A stretch of 64,000 nt of DNA. It comes from Escherichia coli (GTDB taxonomy: Bacteria > Pseudomonadota > Gammaproteobacteria > Enterobacterales > Enterobacteriaceae). A program made the translations under genes and the position numbers. The notes beneath the pieces are model-generated. The model had not been told where the DNA came from. It did no database searches and worked only from the letters and a program-made list of their open reading frames with translations. The stretch lies in NCBI RefSeq assembly GCF_013122565.1, contig NZ_CP053258.1, one strand, 5' to 3'. Below are positions 34,450 to 48,474 of this stretch, piece by piece (the first letter of the stretch is position 1; each line of letters begins with the position of its first letter).

Positions 34450-34683
34450 GTGGGTTATCTGCCCAACCGCAGCGACACGCCGGTGATCAAAATCAGCGCC
34501 AAATGGCTGAGAGAAGCGGGATTTGCGATCGGCACGGGCGTTACCGTGAGGATCTCGGAAGGCTGCCTGATCCTGCTTGCGGATAACAACGAAGTACAGG
34601 AACTGCGCAGGGAACTTTATCAGGTTAAACAGTCAGTTAAGGGGATGCGTGACGGGATGTTTAGTGTGCTGAACGAGAGTTAA
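34450..34683 (+). CDS. SymE-like (AbrB/SpoVT-fold) toxin-family protein, short form (77 aa, GTG start); possibly an N-terminally shortened remnant
   Basis: PVIKISAKWLREAGFAIGTGVTVRISEGCLILLADN resembles the core of K-12 SymE ([34 protein letters not shown], from memory); followed by an imperfect hairpin at 34690-34725. Confidence 0.5.
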   Translation: MGYLPNRSDTPVIKISAKWLREAGFAIGTGVTVRISEGCLILLADNNEVQELRRELYQVKQSVKGMRDGMFSVLNES

Positions 34684-34729: not shown

Positions 34730-35179
34730 TTAATGCTTCAAGGGGAATGACTTCATCAGTAATTCTTCTAAAGAAGAATATAAAAATTCCATTTCATAAG
34801 AGTCATGCAGAAAAACAAATATCTTACCATCTGTATTCATAAGAATAGGGTTTCCGCAGCCATCATCTGAAATAGCATAAAATGAATTCAATATATTTTT
34901 ATCAAGATCTTTATATATTTCCCTAAACTTCAGAGTAAGATCAACTACAGAAGCCTTTCCTACTAAGGAACCATTTTTAAAGGCATGTATAGCTATGCCA
35001 CCAAAGGCCCCACCAAATTTCTTAATAAACTCAATATATTGTATATTGAATTTAATATTTAATATTTTTTCAGCCTGAATGATCTCCTCATCAGAAGCTG
35101 GTATACCATATAGGACCATATCTTGGTCAGATGTTATCTCATCTCTGACTCTTGCTAGCAATTCTTCATTCATACGCAA
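34730..35179 (-). CDS. Predicted immunity protein for orphan toxin 4 (SMI1/KNR4, SUKH-like)
   Basis: 149 aa, AT-rich, directly downstream of an rhs C-terminal toxin module; IQYIEFIKKFGGAFGG motif typical of SUKH immunity proteins. Confidence 0.6.
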   Translation of the reverse strand: MRMNEELLARVRDEITSDQDMVLYGIPASDEEIIQAEKILNIKFNIQYIEFIKKFGGAFGGIAIHAFKNGSLVGKASVVDLTLKFREIYKDLDKNILNSFYAISDDGCGNPILMNTDGKIFVFLHDSYEMEFLYSSLEELLMKSFPLKH

Positions 35180-36297
35180 CCGCCCCCTCTATTGCTTAAA
35201 ACTTTTTCAGCTTGTGATTTCCAGAATTCTTTTTTCCACAGGTTAAATTCTTGACGATTATTTATACCTGAACCTTTTTTATTTCCATTTGGGTGCTGAC
35301 CAGCGTTATTTGTACTTGAACCATGATGTTTATCTGGCATAGCAGTAATTGGCCCTTGTGATTGCTGCCTGTCATGGTGCAATACTATTACATTCCCTTG
35401 CCTATCGCTCGGAGATAAACCAAATGGATGAGGAGCATCATCACTGTTCATAAAAATAATTCTATTAAGCTCGGAATCACTTAAGTGACTTAAATCCGTG
35501 TAACCTGATACATCTAAAGTTAATCCTCTGCTATCAGTAAAAGTAACAGTTAAACCCAGAGGATCGATCCAACTTATTGGATTAGGCGCATATTGGTATA
35601 AGTTTATCCCACCCGCCAGCCCTATCGGGTCCTGACTGATAAACCTCCCGCACTCCGGCGCATAATACCTGAACAGATTGTAATGCAGTCCCGTCTCTTC
35701 ATCATAATACTGCCCCGGCAGCCGCAGCGGTTGCTCAAAGTACGCCCCGCTGTTGCTGATGTCGCCCCGGTTTTCACCAAATCCCGCCTGATAGCCCGCC
35801 CACACCAGCGTCCCGTCCGCCGCGGTCACCTCCTGTACCGTGCCCGTCAGGTCCGTGTGGTAATACCAGATTTTTTGACTCTCTCCGCGCCCGGTGATGG
35901 CGGCCACCGGCGTGTACGGCTGTTCCGCGTCGTACAGGTATGTCCGCTTTCCCTGCCACGTTGTCTCCTGCAACAGCCGGAACCCTTCCCACACAAACGT
36001 TGTCCGGCTTCGTTCTCCCCGGTCGGTATGGAGATTGCTGGTCGCCTTGCTGATGCGCCTGCCCAGCGCATCATACTGATACCGCGTCTCGCTGTTGCTG
36101 CTGATGACCCGCGTTAACTGACCCTGCGCGTTCCACTCCAGCTGTTGGTCCCTGCGCTCTGTCAGTTCGCCCCATTCGTTATAGCGGTAACGGTCACGCC
36201 CGTAGCCCGGCAGGCGGTTATCCGGCACCGCTCCCTGATGCTCATCCGTCAGCAGGTTGCCCGCTTTGTCGTAATAATAATGGTCATGGTCGTACAT
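35170..36297 (-). CDS. Orphan rhs C-terminal toxin module 4: 5'-truncated Rhs core (to DPLGL) plus LHH/HNH-like nuclease-type tip
   Basis: Rhs core homology from about 36345 down to the DPxGL motif, then a divergent ~125-aa tip containing VIVLHHDRQ...KHHG...N...H (HNH/LHH-like). Confidence 0.65.
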   Translation of the reverse strand: MYDHDHYYYDKAGNLLTDEHQGAVPDNRLPGYGRDRYRYNEWGELTERRDQQLEWNAQGQLTRVISSNSETRYQYDALGRRISKATSNLHTDRGERSRTTFVWEGFRLLQETTWQGKRTYLYDAEQPYTPVAAITGRGESQKIWYYHTDLTGTVQEVTAADGTLVWAGYQAGFGENRGDISNSGAYFEQPLRLPGQYYDEETGLHYNLFRYYAPECGRFISQDPIGLAGGINLYQYAPNPISWIDPLGLTVTFTDSRGLTLDVSGYTDLSHLSDSELNRIIFMNSDDAPHPFGLSPSDRQGNVIVLHHDRQQSQGPITAMPDKHHGSSTNNAGQHPNGNKKGSGINNRQEFNLWKKEFWKSQAEKVLSNRGGGCV

Positions 36298-36698: not shown

Positions 36699-38315
36699 TT
36701 AACAAGATCTAATAGCATTTGATGGGACATGGCCTTCCACAAGTACTTCTCCAGAACTAACTGCATAGTTACGGGCTGGTCCTTTTAATCCAGCATCCGT
36801 TGCTTTCTCTACCGTGGATAAGTCAATAATATTCCGATTACCTTTAACATCAGGAATAACATCGTCAGTATCAAATGTAACTGTAGTTTGGCCTGGTTCA
36901 CGGTATCGTACTGCTACATATTCATTTACGGTAGTTGAAATGAATTGTGAGCCTTTAAACGAATCATTACTACCATTTCTAACATGACCAGCAGCGCTCA
37001 TTCCTCGCCCCGGGTTCTTTGCAGATAGCCCCTCACTAATAGATTCATCCGCACGAATATTTCGAAATACCTTGATTAAGCCAAGAGGATCAATCCAGCT
37101 AATCGGATTCGGCGCATACCTGTAAAGATTCAGACCGCCACGGATCGAAATCGGATCCTGACTGATAAACCTCCCGCACTCCGGCGCATAATACCTGAAC
37201 AGATTGTAATGCAGCCCCGTCTCTTCATCATAATACTGCCCCGGCAGCCGCAGTGGTTGCTCAAAGTACGCCCCGCTGTTGCTGATGTCGCCCCGGTTTT
37301 CGCCAAATCCCGCCTGGTAGCCCGCCCACACCAGCGTCCCGTCCGGCGCGGTCACCTCCTGTACCGTGCCCGTCAGGTCCGTGTGGTAATACCAGATTTT
37401 TTGACTCTCTCCGCGCCCCGTGATGGCTGCCACCGGCGTGTACGGCTGTTCCGCGTCGTACAGGTATGTCCGCTTCCCCTGCCACGTTGTCTCCTGTAAC
37501 AGCCGGAACCCTTCCCACACAAACGTCGTCTGCCGCTGTTCCCTCTGGTCCGTATGGCGGCCATATGTCGCCTTGCTGATGCGCCTGCCCAGCGCATCAT
37601 ACTGATACCGCGTCTCGCTGTTGCTGCTGATGACCCGCGTTAACTGGCCCTGCGCGTTCCACTCCAGTTGCTGGTCCCTGCGCTCTGTCAGTTCGCCCCA
37701 TTCGTTATAGCGGTAGCGGTCACGCCCGTAGCCCGGCAGGCGGTTATCCGGCACCGCTCCCTGATGCTCATCCGTCAGCAGATTGCCCGCTTTGTCGTAA
37801 TAATAATGGTCATGGTCGTACATCTGACCCGTGCGACTGGTCAGCCAGCCGCTGCGGTCATAGCTGAACACCAGGCAACCGCGCAGTTTGTCATTGATGC
37901 CGCCGACTTCACCGTCTGCGTTCCAGATATAATCCCGCGCTGTCACGCTGTCTTTCTGCGCCGGGGGGTTACCGGCCTGCTGCGGATTCTGGCTGCCGCC
38001 TGGCAGGCTGCGCTGCCAGCTTAACCGGTTATCGGCGTTGTAGCCGCTGAACGTCGCCAGTTTCCCCTGGGTGCGCATCACCTGACGGTGCAGGCTGTCA
38101 CGCTCATATTCACTGACCGTGATACCGTCCAGTGCCGTCTGGAGCAGATGCCCGCTGCCGTAGTAAAGATGGCTGAGATGCTGCCCGTCCGGCAGGGTAA
38201 TGCCGGTGGGATTGCCCAGCGCGTCACGCTGATATTTTATGCTGCCGTGCACGCTGTGCTCTGCCGTCAGCCAGCCGCTGCGGTCATACGCAAAACGCAC
38301 CGTGTCCGCCTGCAA
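36699..38315 (-). CDS. Orphan rhs C-terminal toxin module 3: 5'-truncated Rhs core plus unique ~125-aa tip (possible ADP-ribosyltransferase-like R/STT motifs)
   Basis: Starts inside the rhs core ([17 protein letters not shown]...), ends DPLGL + IKVFRNIRADESISEGL...GSQFISTTVNEY.... Confidence 0.65.
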   Translation of the reverse strand: MQADTVRFAYDRSGWLTAEHSVHGSIKYQRDALGNPTGITLPDGQHLSHLYYGSGHLLQTALDGITVSEYERDSLHRQVMRTQGKLATFSGYNADNRLSWQRSLPGGSQNPQQAGNPPAQKDSVTARDYIWNADGEVGGINDKLRGCLVFSYDRSGWLTSRTGQMYDHDHYYYDKAGNLLTDEHQGAVPDNRLPGYGRDRYRYNEWGELTERRDQQLEWNAQGQLTRVISSNSETRYQYDALGRRISKATYGRHTDQREQRQTTFVWEGFRLLQETTWQGKRTYLYDAEQPYTPVAAITGRGESQKIWYYHTDLTGTVQEVTAPDGTLVWAGYQAGFGENRGDISNSGAYFEQPLRLPGQYYDEETGLHYNLFRYYAPECGRFISQDPISIRGGLNLYRYAPNPISWIDPLGLIKVFRNIRADESISEGLSAKNPGRGMSAAGHVRNGSNDSFKGSQFISTTVNEYVAVRYREPGQTTVTFDTDDVIPDVKGNRNIIDLSTVEKATDAGLKGPARNYAVSSGEVLVEGHVPSNAIRSC

Positions 38316-38488: not shown

Positions 38489-39340
38489 TTATTTATTTTT
38501 AATTAAATTCATTAAATCCCAAACATTGCTATCATAATGATTGAAACCTTGAATCACAAGATAAGACAATGCTTTCATATCCAACAAAAATCTGATTTTC
38601 CCGTCTATAATTTTTGTATTTTCCGTTATAAACAATCGTTCCAATTTAACAAGATTACTTATTTTAGCTACGCTTGGAATATCACCCATTTTTGAAAAAG
38701 ATATTTTTTTAATTGAAGGTAATTTACTTACATCTTCAATGATTGACACTGCCATTTTTTTGCATAAAGATAAAGACACTTCTTCTATATTTTTCAAACC
38801 ATCTAAAAAAGTCGTGTCCGAAGCCTTAGATAATCCAGATAACTTGATGCTCCTTAAAGTCTTGATAGATGATAAATTAGGGATTGTTTGAATATTGCTA
38901 TTTTTTATCTCTAATGATTGCAAGAATGATCTCCCCGCAACATGCTCTTTTTTTTCTTTAAAATCTATCAATGTTATTTTTTCCAGAGTTCTGTGATTAA
39001 ACAAATTATCAATTCCATTTCGACCTATTAATACAGCCTCTTTTAAAAATGGGAAATATGATAAATCAAGTCTCATTTTATCATCATTCAAAAGATGGAT
39101 GAGTTGTATTTTTTTCAACGAATACAGTTGTGATATATCCTTTATTTTATTGCCTGTGATATATATTTCATTAATGAAATTAATTTCATCAAGAAATGAT
39201 AAATCAGTTATAAGCGGTGACAAAACCAACCCGTTAACTTTCTTTTCCTTCATCGTGTCAACAATATGACTTGTATCGTCATGCTTTTCATACACAAGGA
39301 CACGACTTCCCCGTACACCATAATTTTCCACTAGTCTCAT
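38489..39340 (-). CDS. Leucine-rich-repeat protein (283 aa), positioned as the immunity gene of orphan toxin 2
   Basis: AT-rich; repeated L..L..L.L..N.I LRR-like units (LSFLDEINFINEIYITGNKIKDISQLYSLKKIQLIHLLND..., IQTIPNLSSIKTLRSIKLSGL); 20 bp downstream of orphan module 2. Confidence 0.55.
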   Translation of the reverse strand: MRLVENYGVRGSRVLVYEKHDDTSHIVDTMKEKKVNGLVLSPLITDLSFLDEINFINEIYITGNKIKDISQLYSLKKIQLIHLLNDDKMRLDLSYFPFLKEAVLIGRNGIDNLFNHRTLEKITLIDFKEKKEHVAGRSFLQSLEIKNSNIQTIPNLSSIKTLRSIKLSGLSKASDTTFLDGLKNIEEVSLSLCKKMAVSIIEDVSKLPSIKKISFSKMGDIPSVAKISNLVKLERLFITENTKIIDGKIRFLLDMKALSYLVIQGFNHYDSNVWDLMNLIKNK

Positions 39341-39359
39341 ATATTTCCCCTTAAATAAA

Positions 39360-40820
39360 TCAACACTCCCCCTTCACTCTAAAATCTTGATCTGAAACAT
39401 TTCCTGTATTTGGTGGTCGTTTTTCATTACTGGTTACTCCTCTTCCTCCATTTTTAGCTATTTTCATTGCCTCTAAATTATTTAGCCATTGTTTACTAAT
39501 TCCAGCATATTTATCAAAATTCAACGAATCCAACATTGCCTGAGTTAACTTTCCACTTCGGGCATGTTGCAACATTCTCTGATATAGATTTTTTGTTTGA
39601 CCTGCATACATTTTACCCGCACCTTCATCAAAAAACTCATAAATTGCTTGCCCTTTATATTTTGCAGTAACATCTCTTATTTGTTCTAAAAAATCACTAG
39701 CGAGTCTTACTAATCCCCAAGGATCAATCCACCTCAGCGGATTCGGCGCATACCTGTAAAGATTCAGCCCACCCCGGATCGAAATCGGGTCCTGGCTTAT
39801 GAACCTTCCGCACTCCGGCGCATAATACCTGAACAGATTGTAATGCAGCCCCGTCTCTTCATCATAATACTGCCCCGGCAGCCGCAGCGGTTGCTCAAAG
39901 TACGCCCCGCTGTTGCTGATGTCGCCCCGATTTTCTCCAAATCCCGCCTGGTAGCCCGCCCACACCAGCCTCCCGTCCGGCGCGGTCACCTCCTGTACCG
40001 TGCCCGTCAGGTCCGTGTGGTAATACCAGATTTTTTGACTCTCTCCGCGCCCGGTGATGGCCGCCACTGGCGTGTACGGCTGTTCCGCGTCGTACAGGTA
40101 TGTCCGCTTTCCCTGCCACGTTGTCTCCTGCAACAGCCGGAACCCTTCCCACACAAACGTCGTCCGCCGCTGTTCCCTCTGGACCGTATGGCGGCCATAT
40201 GTCGCCTTGCTGATGCGCCTGCCCAGCGCATCATACTGATACCGCGTCTCGCTGTTGCTGCTGATGACCCGCGTTAACTGGCCCTGCGCGTTCCACTCCA
40301 GTTGCTGGTCCCTGCGCTCTGTCAGTTCGCCCCATTCGTTATAGCGGTAACGGTCACGCCCGTAGCCCGGCAGGCGGTTATCCATCACCGCGCTCTGATA
40401 CTCGTCCGTCAGCAGATTGCCCGCTTTGTCGTAATAATAATGGTCATGGTCGTACATCTGCCCCGTGCGGCTGGTCAGCCAGCCGCTGCGGTCATACGCA
40501 AAGCGCACCGTGTCCGCCTGCATGTGGTGCAGCCGTTCCCCTTCTTTCGTCGGGGTGAGCGTCACTTCCGTTATCTGGTCAAGACGGTTGTAGCTGAAGG
40601 TCCGTGTACTGTGCTGCGTGTCACTGCGCAACAGGCGGCCCAGCGCATCACGCTCCTGCCGCTCATTACGCCCCCCGCCTTCTGTACCCTGCGTCTGGAT
40701 GATGACCGGATACCCGCCCGCATTCAGCGCCAAATGGCTGAGAGAAGCGGGATTTGAGATCGGCACGGGCGTTACCGTGAAGATCTCGGAGGGATGTCTG
40801 ATCCTGCTTGCGGATAACAA
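39360..40820 (-). CDS. Orphan rhs C-terminal toxin module 2: 5'-truncated Rhs core with an internal deletion, plus GIY-YIG nuclease-like tip
   Basis: Core homology starts at ...[14 protein letters not shown] (40727); lacks ~130 codons between the two YDRSGWLT repeats; after DPWGL the tip reads AIYEFFDEGAGKMYAGQTKNLYQRMLQH (GIY...YIG...R...H pattern). Confidence 0.65.
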   Translation of the reverse strand: MLSASRIRHPSEIFTVTPVPISNPASLSHLALNAGGYPVIIQTQGTEGGGRNERQERDALGRLLRSDTQHSTRTFSYNRLDQITEVTLTPTKEGERLHHMQADTVRFAYDRSGWLTSRTGQMYDHDHYYYDKAGNLLTDEYQSAVMDNRLPGYGRDRYRYNEWGELTERRDQQLEWNAQGQLTRVISSNSETRYQYDALGRRISKATYGRHTVQREQRRTTFVWEGFRLLQETTWQGKRTYLYDAEQPYTPVAAITGRGESQKIWYYHTDLTGTVQEVTAPDGRLVWAGYQAGFGENRGDISNSGAYFEQPLRLPGQYYDEETGLHYNLFRYYAPECGRFISQDPISIRGGLNLYRYAPNPLRWIDPWGLVRLASDFLEQIRDVTAKYKGQAIYEFFDEGAGKMYAGQTKNLYQRMLQHARSGKLTQAMLDSLNFDKYAGISKQWLNNLEAMKIAKNGGRGVTSNEKRPPNTGNVSDQDFRVKGEC

Positions 40821-40914
40821 CGAAGTACAGGAACTGCGCAGGGAGCTTTATCAGGTTAAACAGGCAGTTAAGGGGATGCGGGACGGGATGTTTAGTGTGC
40901 TGAACGAAAGTTAA
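40728..40914 (+). pseudogene. SymE-like gene, 5'-truncated copy (3' ~190 bp plus hairpin duplicated from 34497-34725)
   Basis: ...SAKWLREAGFEIGTGVTVKISEGCLILLADNNEVQELRRELYQVKQAVKGMRDGMFSVLNES nearly identical to the 34450 copy; upstream part of the track ORF is antisense rhs sequence; perfect hairpin at 40923-40955. Confidence 0.55.
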
Positions 40915-40975: not shown

Positions 40976-41464
40976 TTAATCATAAGCATCGCCGTAATTT
41001 TCATATTTCCAATAAATATATTTACCACCTGAGCTATATAATTTATGCAATAATTCTGTAAAAGTCATTGCAATAATTGGACAACTACCTACAACGCCAT
41101 GTATCTCATAATTGCTATCATAACAGCGTCCATTTCTTTCTGTAGAAAAATCAATGGATAAATAATCATTATTATCGGTCCTGCAAATTAAGTACCATGA
41201 AGATGATATATCATCCTCACATGGCTCACCAACTATAAATTTATTTGCCTGTAATATTTCATTATTTTTCAAAATAGTGAAGGAGATTTCCTGCTCTTCA
41301 GAGCAAAACAATTTTATTCCATTACATATTTTGTAAAAACGAACAACATCATCAGGATATTTTAAATAATCAGATGGTAATAAAGGCAAATTACCATCTG
41401 GTGGAATAACTTCACATCTGTTATCATTTTTTATCAAGTCAAGTAATTCATCAATGCCATTCAT
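40976..41464 (-). CDS. Predicted immunity protein for orphan toxin 1
   Basis: 162 aa, AT-rich, immediately downstream of orphan module 1. Confidence 0.55.
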   Translation of the reverse strand: MNGIDELLDLIKNDNRCEVIPPDGNLPLLPSDYLKYPDDVVRFYKICNGIKLFCSEEQEISFTILKNNEILQANKFIVGEPCEDDISSSWYLICRTDNNDYLSIDFSTERNGRCYDSNYEIHGVVGSCPIIAMTFTELLHKLYSSGGKYIYWKYENYGDAYD

Positions 41465-41473
41465 ATTACCACC

Positions 41474-43312
41474 TTAAAAAATAACAGTATCAAACTTCCC
41501 AGAGTATATAAACTGGTTCAATGCCCGGTAATATGCTTCCCTACTGGCAACAGGAACATTTGCGGCATCAAACATTCGTTCAGTAAGATCTTTCATTTCT
41601 CTGCTACTTACTGTTGTCCAATCCACTTTCCCACCAACTCTTCTTCCGGTTTTCTGCTCTAACCAATCTCTATATACTTTTTTTGTTGCAGCATGATTAG
41701 CCTCGGATAATGCAATTGTTGGTGACTTTGAAGGATATTTCCCTCCATAAGATGGCACATTCTTAGACATCCAAATATCAAGCACACCATGATGGTTTTC
41801 TAAAGAGGAATTAATTGGTCGATAAGGAACAACATCAAACTCTTTAACTTCACCGCACTTAAGTCCAAGGGGATCTATCCACCCCAGCGGATTCGGCGCA
41901 TAAGCATACTGGTTCAGCCCACCCGCCAGCCCTATCGGGTCCTGGCTTACGAACCGCCCGCACTCCGGCGCATAATACCTGAACAGATTATAGTGCAGCC
42001 CCGTCTCTTCATCATAATACTGCCCCGGCAGCCGCAGCGGCTGTTCAAAGTACGCCCCGCTGTTGCTGATATCGCCCCGGTTTTCGCCAAATCCCGCCTG
42101 GTAGCCCGCCCACACCAGCGTCCCGTCCGCCGCGGTCACCTCCTGTACCGTGCCCGTCAGGTCCGTGTGGTAATACCAGATTTTTTGACTCTCTCCGCGC
42201 CCCGTGATGGCGGCCACCGGCGTGTACGGCTGTTCCGCGTCGTACAGGTATGTCCGCTTTCCCTGCCACGTTGTCTCCTGCAACAGCCGGAACCCTTCCC
42301 ACACAAACGTTGTCCGGCTTCGTTCTCCCCGGTCCGTATGGCGGCCATATGTCGCCTTGCTGATGCGCCTGCCCAGCGCATCATACTGATACCGCGTCTC
42401 GCTGTTGCTGCTGATGACCCGCGTTAACTGGCCCTGCGCGTTCCACTCCAGCTGCTGGTCCCTGCGCTCTGTCAGTTCGCCCCATTCGTTATAGCGGTAG
42501 CGGTCACGCCCGTAGCCCGGCAGGCGGTTATCCATCACCGCTCCCTGATATTCATCCGTCAGCAGGTTGCCCGCTTTATCGTAATAATAATGGTCATGGT
42601 CATACATCTGCCCCGTGCGGCTGGTCAGCCAGCCGCTGCGGTCATAGCTGAACACCAGGCAACCGCGCAGTTTGTCATTGATGCCGCCGACTTCACCGTC
42701 TGCGTTCCAGATATAGTCCCGCGCTGTCACGCTGTCGCTGTGTGACGGGGGTGTGGCTGTCTGCTGTGGGTTCTGGCTGCCGCCTGGCAGGCTGCGCTGC
42801 CAGCTTAACCGGTTGTCGGCGTTGTAGCCGCTGAACGTCGCCAGTTTCCCCTGGGTGCGCATCACCTGACGGTGCAGACTGTCACGCTCATATTCACTGA
42901 CCGTGATACCGTCCAGTGCCGTCTGGAGCAGATGTCCGCTGCCGTAGTAAAGATGGCTGAGGTGCTGCCCGTTCGGTAACGTGATGTCGGTGGGATTGCC
43001 CAGCGCGTCACGCTGATATTTTATGCTGCCGTGCACGCTGTGCTCTGCCGTCAGCCACCCGCTGCGGTCATACGCAAAGCGCACCGTGTCCGCCTGCATG
43101 TGGTGCAGCCGTTCCCCTTCTTTCGTCGGGGTGAGCGTCACTTCCGTTATCTGGTCAAGACGGTTGTAGCTGAAGGTCCGTGTACTGTGCTGCGTGTCAC
43201 TGCGCAACAGGCGGCCCAGCGCATCACGCTCCTGTCGCTCATTACGCACCCCGCCTTCTGTACCCTGCGTCTGGATGATGACCGGATACCCGCCCGCATT
43301 CAGCACAAACAT
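41474..43312 (-). CDS. Orphan rhs C-terminal toxin module 1: 5'-truncated Rhs core (~1.6 kb retained, homology up to ~43468) plus unique ~130-aa tip
   Basis: Core identical in register to the main rhs from ...[12 protein letters not shown] to DPLGL; tip KCGEVKEFDVVPYRPINSSLENHHGVLDIWMSK... (possible xHH nuclease-like motif, weak). Confidence 0.65.
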   Translation of the reverse strand: MFVLNAGGYPVIIQTQGTEGGVRNERQERDALGRLLRSDTQHSTRTFSYNRLDQITEVTLTPTKEGERLHHMQADTVRFAYDRSGWLTAEHSVHGSIKYQRDALGNPTDITLPNGQHLSHLYYGSGHLLQTALDGITVSEYERDSLHRQVMRTQGKLATFSGYNADNRLSWQRSLPGGSQNPQQTATPPSHSDSVTARDYIWNADGEVGGINDKLRGCLVFSYDRSGWLTSRTGQMYDHDHYYYDKAGNLLTDEYQGAVMDNRLPGYGRDRYRYNEWGELTERRDQQLEWNAQGQLTRVISSNSETRYQYDALGRRISKATYGRHTDRGERSRTTFVWEGFRLLQETTWQGKRTYLYDAEQPYTPVAAITGRGESQKIWYYHTDLTGTVQEVTAADGTLVWAGYQAGFGENRGDISNSGAYFEQPLRLPGQYYDEETGLHYNLFRYYAPECGRFVSQDPIGLAGGLNQYAYAPNPLGWIDPLGLKCGEVKEFDVVPYRPINSSLENHHGVLDIWMSKNVPSYGGKYPSKSPTIALSEANHAATKKVYRDWLEQKTGRRVGGKVDWTTVSSREMKDLTERMFDAANVPVASREAYYRALNQFIYSGKFDTVIF

Positions 43313-43517: not shown

Positions 43518-48474
<4,957 letters not shown>

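Follow-up and report, generated by a model that had tools for sequence, protein, structure and literature searches.

A leucine-rich-repeat protein as candidate immunity partner of a GIY-YIG toxin tip in an Escherichia coli orphan Rhs array

What is a gene for a leucine-rich-repeat (LRR) protein doing in the place of the immunity gene of an orphan Rhs toxin? The question was raised by the initial annotation of the stretch of Escherichia coli DNA analyzed here (64,000 nucleotides, termed the window), which noticed such a gene directly behind the second orphan toxin of an Rhs array and considered that an LRR scaffold would be an unusual architecture for a toxin inhibitor. We examined the locus, the toxin tip, the fold of the LRR protein and the occurrence of the pair in other bacteria.

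The orphan Rhs array and its AT-rich gene

The genes flanking the locus are gmhA/lpcA, fadE, ivy, yafV and a symE-like gene, and upstream of the orphan array are found a full-length Rhs gene, vgrG and T6SS genes. This gene content places the locus in the aspV-linked T6SS island of Escherichia (the aspV/yafV island). The features of the array are listed in Table 1. Each of the four other Rhs units is accompanied by an immunity-type ORF in the same position as the LRR gene, and two of these ORFs belong to the SUKH/SMI1_KNR4 family. At 101 to 162 amino acids the four ORFs agree with the small size that had been given as usual for Rhs immunity proteins, and the order of the array bears out the labels "orphan toxin 2" and "immunity position" under which the pair was first described.

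Table 1. Features of the Rhs array, in window coordinates
Feature	Position	Strand	Basis or content
Main Rhs, full-length, 1379 aa	43871..48010	(-)	ORF list; followed by 119-aa ORF
Main Rhs tip	43871-44260	(-)	Putative cytidine-deaminase toxin
119-aa ORF after main Rhs	43518..43877		No family match
Orphan 1	41474..43312	(-)	ORF list; followed by 162-aa ORF
Partner of orphan 1	40976-41464		SUKH/SMI1_KNR4 immunity
SymE-like ORF, second copy	40618-40914	(+)	
Orphan 2	39360..40820	(-)	ORF list; followed by LRR ORF
Orphan 2 Rhs core fragment	39711..40820	(-)	YD repeats and Rhs-associated core ending PNPLRWIDPWGL; NCBIfam, ORF list
Orphan 2 toxin tip, 116 aa after DPWGL (ORF residues 371-486), and stop codon	39360..39710	(-)	GIY-YIG (URI) nuclease domain
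Intergenic spacer, 19 nt	39341..39359	(-)	Holds Shine-Dalgarno sequence; direct sequence reading
Candidate LRR immunity gene, 283 aa	38489..39340	(-)	ORF, LRR homology, AF2, Foldseek, repeat register, dN/dS
Orphan 3	36699..38315	(-)	ORF list; followed by 101-aa ORF
Partner of orphan 3, 101 aa	36377-36682		No family match
Orphan 4	35170..36297	(-)	ORF list; followed by 149-aa ORF
Partner of orphan 4	34730-35179		SUKH immunity
SymE-like ORF	34450-34683	(+)	

The LRR gene is an intact ORF with an ATG start. Its GC content is 0.29 across the gene, whereas the Rhs core DNA on either side is at about 0.60. Within the gap between the TGA stop of orphan 2 and the LRR start, AAGGGG at 39347-39352 provides a Shine-Dalgarno sequence; 6 nt separate it from the ATG at 39340. 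A scan for promoters and terminators around the gene gave no signal above shuffled background. Because dN/dS is 0.16 to 0.25 in comparisons with homologues at 83%, 64% and 55% identity, we conclude that the LRR gene evolves as a protein-coding gene; the corresponding value against the nearest intact allele is 0.58. Intact alleles include the window copy, a 92%-identical allele that represents 71 member sequences, and the 83% allele.

Several observations concern the neighbors of this gene. The main Rhs tip matches Pfam Deam_C (PF24241, 2.7e-14), and the HAE...CxxC motif is visible in its sequence; toxins of the deaminase kind attract interest as scaffolds for base editors. The orphan 1 tip matches Tox-SHH (1.6e-25), the orphan 4 tip matches the LHH nucleases (1e-8), and for the orphan 3 tip there is a weak match to DUF7587 (0.012). 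The orphan 2 tip differs from all four. Two SymE-like ORFs are found within the orphan array, and the equivalent gene in E. coli is annotated as "SymE family type I addiction module toxin". The second of these copies overlaps the 5' end of the orphan 2 Rhs ORF in antisense and may mark a recombination or insertion boundary of a duplicated block. In two related E. coli loci (L037, 10363-11463; L042, 522-1622) the immunity position of the main Rhs is occupied by a 366-aa ankyrin-repeat protein, a second case within this island family of an immunity built on a repeat scaffold (Imm-Ank-like).

Toxin tip and LRR fold

Orphan 2 is without the N-terminal PAAR/delivery region. Its core is recognized by the NCBIfam models RHS_core, TIGR03696 Rhs_assc_core (9e-25) and YD_repeat (1e-11), and PNPLRWIDPWGL, read in the orphan 2 sequence at the core end, conforms to the demarcation motif PxxxxDPxGL. 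The tip that follows matches the Pfam families GIY-YIG (9.8e-5) and Eco29kI, a GIY-YIG restriction enzyme (3.7e-3), and an NCBIfam model of group I intron endonucleases matches residues 392-430 of the orphan 2 ORF. Among the conserved residues of the tip are Y394, Y405, R415, H419, E450 and N465 (ORF numbering). In alignments of 13-25 toxins that include the window tip, every sequence has the Y, Y, G, R, E and N residues, and almost all have the H. The catalytic residues of I-TevI are Y6, Y17, R27, H31, E75 and N90, and the spacing in the tip (Y-11-Y-10-R-4-H and E-15-N) equals that of I-TevI. Searched against the PDB, the profile of the toxin family matches the catalytic domain of I-TevI (6e-3) and the N-terminal domains of UvrC (0.09). 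The orphan 2 tip looks like an active URI-type DNase, and since it keeps the Y, Y, R, H, E and N residues at I-TevI spacing, an inhibitor would be needed. Matches to the HNH regions of colicin E7 and pyocin S2 were also obtained (E 0.017-0.08, profile positions 35-88, in the C-terminal half); as the GIY-YIG catalytic set and its spacing are complete, we judge these to be probably spurious.

An LRR profile search had been proposed as a check on the neighboring gene. This search returned only generic LRR families in Pfam (LRR_14 at 3e-4), and, with phmmer against the PDB, the LRR region of a Chlorobium Roco protein (E 3e-14) and internalin A (5e-8). Pfam LRR_14 is matched at E<=1e-3 by 32 of 52 family members. 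NCBIfam contains no specific model for the protein: its internalin models reach only 22-25 bits, where the cut-offs stand at 1050-1600. Neither Pfam nor NCBIfam holds a profile dedicated to the LRR family, which is matched by generic LRR models alone.

The protein consists of an N-terminal cap formed by a beta-hairpin and helix (about residues 1-32), 11 units of SDS22/internalin type with 20-26 amino acids each (residues 33-283), and a C-terminal helix cap. AF2, run on an alignment of 52 relatives, gives a very confident model (pLDDT 95.4, pTM 0.91) with 11 parallel strands spaced 20-25 residues apart. In a Foldseek search of the PDB with this model, InlA, Roco and SDS22 were matched at E 1e-8 to 1e-6, with InlF also among the best matches; a YopM-cap chimera, too, is among the best sequence and fold matches in the PDB. 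SDS22 (PDB 6obn, 6mky) is the best global structural match, at TM 0.63-0.69. The protein is a genuine LRR solenoid of tandem units with an LxxLxLxxN/C-type core, and the first description of a 283-aa, AT-rich ORF built of LRR-like repeats was exact in its ORF, its base composition and its fold. An assignment to the RI-like class of LRR proteins was rejected, given repeats of 20-26 aa, a pI of 9.3, and best structural matches to internalin, Roco and SDS22. No signal peptide or TM segment is visible in the LRR protein, and its N-terminus is hydrophilic.

Occurrence of the pair and the case for immunity

A search of a representative library identified 334 LRR clusters at E<1e-10. Most are single-domain proteins of 270-310 aa with 22-35% identity to the query, and they share the C-terminal signature [ED]xTxIxDG[DK]L...RxHY together with a CKK[IM] motif. 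An alignment of the close clade found no relative among the GTDB representative genomes. With a profile of a mid-diversity subset of the family, 28 loci bearing LRR homologues of about 285 aa were found in GTDB species genomes. They fall in at least 8 phyla, the taxa being Planctomycetota, Bacteroidota, Acidobacteriota, Myxococcota, Chloroflexota, Actinomycetota, two CPR lineages and Xenorhabdus.

We built a toxin HMM from the tails of the ORFs upstream of these LRR genes and ran it on all loci, translated in six frames. In 23 of the 28 loci one and the same GIY-YIG domain lies directly ahead of the LRR gene, in the same orientation and with its end within about 100 nt; the other 5 loci lack it. 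It is usually the C-terminus of a protein of 770 to >1650 aa. The window tip matches this HMM at 7e-10, and so do the tips upstream of metagenomic LRR homologues at 83%, 35% and 27% identity. The junction between the two genes is -4 or -1 nt (an ATGA or TGATG overlap) for 14 of the 25 pairs listed. Pairwise distances among toxins and among LRR proteins are correlated (Mantel r 0.77), and none of 2000 permutations gave a value as high.

Other LRR homologues are found where no toxin is present. At L004 (819-4407) the 55% homologue stands at the end of a row of five small AT-rich ORFs, which encode 93-171 aa, have no Pfam matches on record, and adjoin a sugar-kinase-like (kdgK-like) gene; there is no toxin gene, and the array looks like a poly-immunity island. 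The 64% homologue is found alone, beside an AIDA-type fragment. Both look like orphan immunity genes. In a further locus, from an Acidobacteria MAG (L020, 5847-6725), a second ORF with the GIY-YIG toxin domain lies directly downstream of the LRR gene; no second LRR gene was detected within that locus, and this ORF could be a tandem or orphan toxin cassette. Judged from sequence comparison, the pairing of LRR and GIY-YIG genes is an ancient, phylum-spanning module, which the present analysis adds, and the LRR family appears to be tied to one GIY-YIG clade.

The locus in the window has the features of an Rhs cassette: an Rhs/YD core with its motif, a variable C-terminal toxin, and a downstream gene on the same strand that co-varies with the toxin. 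The LRR ORF very probably encodes the cognate cytoplasmic immunity protein of the orphan Rhs 2 GIY-YIG DNase tip. This reading is strongly supported by the order of toxin and LRR genes, by their co-divergence, and by the toxin-less homologues in arrays. The proposal that the protein occupies the immunity position and is a candidate inhibitor of the orphan 2 tip thus gains from the comparative data, including the coupling-type junctions and the toxin directly upstream in most loci.

It is less evident that the cassette is in use in E. coli. The LRR gene and tip are present in only 3 of 5426 complete E. coli genomes. In all three carriers a nonsense mutation cuts the LRR reading frame short: GF3-3 carries Q141* and two pig isolates carry E129*, which makes two independent events. 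The orphan Rhs/GIY-YIG tip beside the gene is reduced to fragments. Premature stops from two events, together with the degraded toxin, suggest that the module is dispensable and decaying in Escherichia. Our search for a full-length Rhs with the exact window tip yielded partial E. coli fragments only. RefSeq annotates the LRR copies of E. coli GF3-3 (L001, 9001-9852) and E. coli HCP5S3_I2 (L037, 9001-9852) as two "hypothetical proteins" each. The enterobacterial cassette seems to be a rarely used, decaying orphan.

The window copy might itself be such a silent cassette, with an ORF that is intact by sampling chance, unused in the source strain, and on its way to becoming a pseudogene. The damage seen in all three complete carriers, the orphan Rhs without a delivery domain, the promoter and terminator scan that gave nothing above background, and the dN/dS of 0.58 against the closest allele all fit this explanation. 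However, tip and LRR ORF are both full length in the window and the LRR gene has a good Shine-Dalgarno sequence, the 92% allele with its 71 member sequences and the 83% allele are intact, and dN/dS falls to 0.16-0.25 at greater depth. We regard a relic as unlikely. It would in any case be compatible with the immunity reading, because it concerns present-day use and not the identity of the protein.

Adjacency and co-divergence give a functional link between the two genes, not the sign of that link. The LRR protein could in principle be an accessory factor of the toxin, such as a chaperone, loading adaptor or activator, with the true immunity gene elsewhere; the LRR protein is not acidic, and a fused AF2 model of the pair (pTM 0.63, described below) contains no confident inhibitory interface. 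This is nevertheless very improbable. No other candidate immunity ORF lies between or after the pair, the next gene downstream being the following orphan Rhs, and the LRR gene begins right after the toxin stop, or overlaps it, in most of the 23 toxin-paired loci. Homologues persist without the toxin, in poly-immunity-like arrays or alone, and the genes of the known Rhs chaperones (Eag/DUF1795 type) lie upstream, their products binding the N-terminus. Hardly credible is a secreted host-interaction or surface factor unrelated to the toxin (an internalin or a YopM/IpaH-type effector), as the best PDB sequence and fold matches and the weak NCBIfam internalin matches might suggest, since the NCBIfam score is 25 bits against a curated cut-off of 1600, the protein has no signal peptide and ends at its LRR cap without LPXTG or NEL domain, and its relatives come from CPR and from free-living bacteria of soil and water, with the GIY-YIG toxin adjacent in 23 of 28 loci. 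The internalin/LRR type III effector class was likewise rejected as an assignment for the protein itself, with scores far below cut-offs and capped LRRs only.

Returning to the cognate immunity protein, we propose that the toxin tip and LRR genes form one toxin-immunity cassette, AT-rich and probably acquired horizontally, which was then parked downstream of the main T6SS-linked Rhs. Since the toxin here is an orphan without a delivery domain, the immunity gene would mainly protect against neighbors that fire the GIY-YIG toxin. Its own cell would be protected as well should the cassette move into the main rhs gene by recombination. The idea of such recombination draws on what is established for orphan Rhs cassettes: the core sequence common to the main Rhs and the orphan could let the tip/immunity cassette recombine to yield a toxin that is expressed and delivered.

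The LRR solenoid most likely binds the nuclease domain of about 100 residues in a 1:1 complex, and the bound solenoid would block access of the nuclease to DNA, at either the active site or the DNA-binding face. By analogy to SDS22-PP1 and RI-RNase A, the binding face is probably the concave beta-sheet. We infer binding, binding face and stoichiometry here, as well as expression in the source strain. When the tip and the LRR protein were joined by a (GGGGS)6 linker and modeled by AF2, with 25 natural toxin-LRR pairs as the paired alignment, both domains were folded, but the pTM of 0.63 is too low for a confident interface to be claimed or dismissed. The toxin domain of this model (pLDDT 85-92) has the β-β-α-α-β-α order expected of GIY-YIG.

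The charge of the two proteins is unexpected for a nuclease-inhibitor pair, as both are basic: the LRR protein has a net charge of +8, and the pI of the toxin tip is 9.4. Across the LRR family the median pI is 8.2, with acidic values in only 6 of 26 members. Barstar, the colicin Im proteins and RI act as acidic mimics of the substrate. The LRR protein is basic where these classic nuclease inhibitors are acidic, which makes simple DNA mimicry unlikely, and we have rejected an acidic DNA-mimic mode for this protein, most of its family also being basic. Its binding mode may differ from that of the acidic nuclease inhibitors.

A broader interpretation is offered only tentatively. The LRR protein could belong to a pan-bacterial, uncurated family of about 285 aa, with several hundred clusters at 50% identity and the signature ESTNIxDGDLSxL...RxHY, that serves a single clade of GIY-YIG DNase toxins. 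It might then be the first prokaryotic LRR enzyme inhibitor, possibly one that neutralizes its target by a means other than mimicry (exosite clamping, DNA co-binding).

Relation to known immunity systems

The LRR architecture is unusual when set against the typical small immunity proteins, as the initial annotation held. As a class it is rare but already catalogued, and to that extent its novelty was overstated: Imm-LRR has been described (PMC3482391), and LRR immunity has been predicted, in a bioRxiv preprint of 2026, for UvrC-like Rhs-CTs (doi 10.64898/2026.07.13.738213). In other respects the LRR gene is what one would expect to find in a polymorphic toxin locus. We found no LRR immunity protein characterized structurally or biochemically in the searchable literature. 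The small cassette described here (a 116-aa toxin and a 283-aa immunity protein), present in Escherichia and with many natural variants, would be a convenient model for LRR inhibition of a GIY-YIG DNase and for the co-evolution of specificity; the unexplained basic charge of the candidate inhibitor is a further point of value. A rule for annotation also follows from the family-wide pairing in 23 of 28 loci across phyla: an LRR protein of about 285 aa that ends ...TxIxDG...HY and is encoded directly after a GIY-YIG tip would be annotated as an immunity protein, and not as "internalin-like" or "hypothetical".

The name Imm-LRR dates from 2012, when it was given to one of a small number of immunity classes made of general protein-interaction repeats, along with Imm-Ank and Imm-HEAT (Zhang, de Souza, Anantharaman, Iyer and Aravind; PMC3482391). 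Imm-LRR was listed next to T5SS toxins and in poly-immunity loci, and the immunities listed for Tox-URI1 and Tox-URI2 were Imm14/26/44/51 and Imm9/12/39/44, respectively, with LRR absent (PMC3482391). Compared by description, the window protein resembles Imm-LRR in being an LRR protein found by polymorphic toxins and in heterogeneous poly-immunity loci, with predicted protein-protein binding. The gene adjoins toxins in 23 of the 28 loci, and in L004 five small ORFs and an LRR gene occur without a toxin. The two differ in that the partner in the window is a GIY-YIG tip, of a kind carried on Rhs and giant toxins in at least 8 phyla, whereas Imm-LRR was listed beside T5SS toxins.

A further parallel is the LRR protein "314" of Stenotrophomonas rhizophila, a bacterium treated in two papers from 2026. 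The protein is encoded in the vgrG6 Rhs poly-immunity cluster and was detected by proteomics; AlphaFold3 predicts that it blocks "UvrC-like" Rhs-CT endonucleases (doi 10.64898/2026.07.13.738213; PMC13340143). Again compared by description, both are low-GC candidate LRR immunity genes in T6SS Rhs loci with a predicted target of GIY-YIG type. Protein 314 comes from another genus, is larger (38.4 kDa) and is an orphan immunity, whereas the window LRR gene is still beside its putative cognate orphan-Rhs toxin. In Salmonella, a PAAR-Rhs-GIY-YIG effector pairs with a CdiI-type immunity protein; GIY-YIG toxins therefore use several immunity folds.

Within Rhs nuclease loci, SUKH (SMI1/KNR4) and Imm-Ank proteins have the same genomic position and role as that proposed for the LRR protein. 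They have other folds, and SUKH is promiscuous across toxin types, whereas the LRR family seemingly serves one GIY-YIG clade. SDS22 bound to PP1 offers a structural analogy only: it is an LRR protein of similar length with a metallo-enzyme on its concave face, but it is a eukaryotic phosphatase regulator and its sequence identity to the window protein is 19%. Mammalian RI is an LRR horseshoe that inhibits a small secreted nuclease (RNase A/angiogenin) by tight 1:1 binding, and by analogy the proposed logic in the window is the same, an LRR protein inhibiting a nuclease. The two have no homology beyond the LRR superfamily. RI has Cys-rich repeats of 28-29 residues, is strongly acidic and targets the RNase A fold, whereas the window protein has repeats of 20-26 residues, a pI of 9.3 and, as its probable target, a GIY-YIG DNase.
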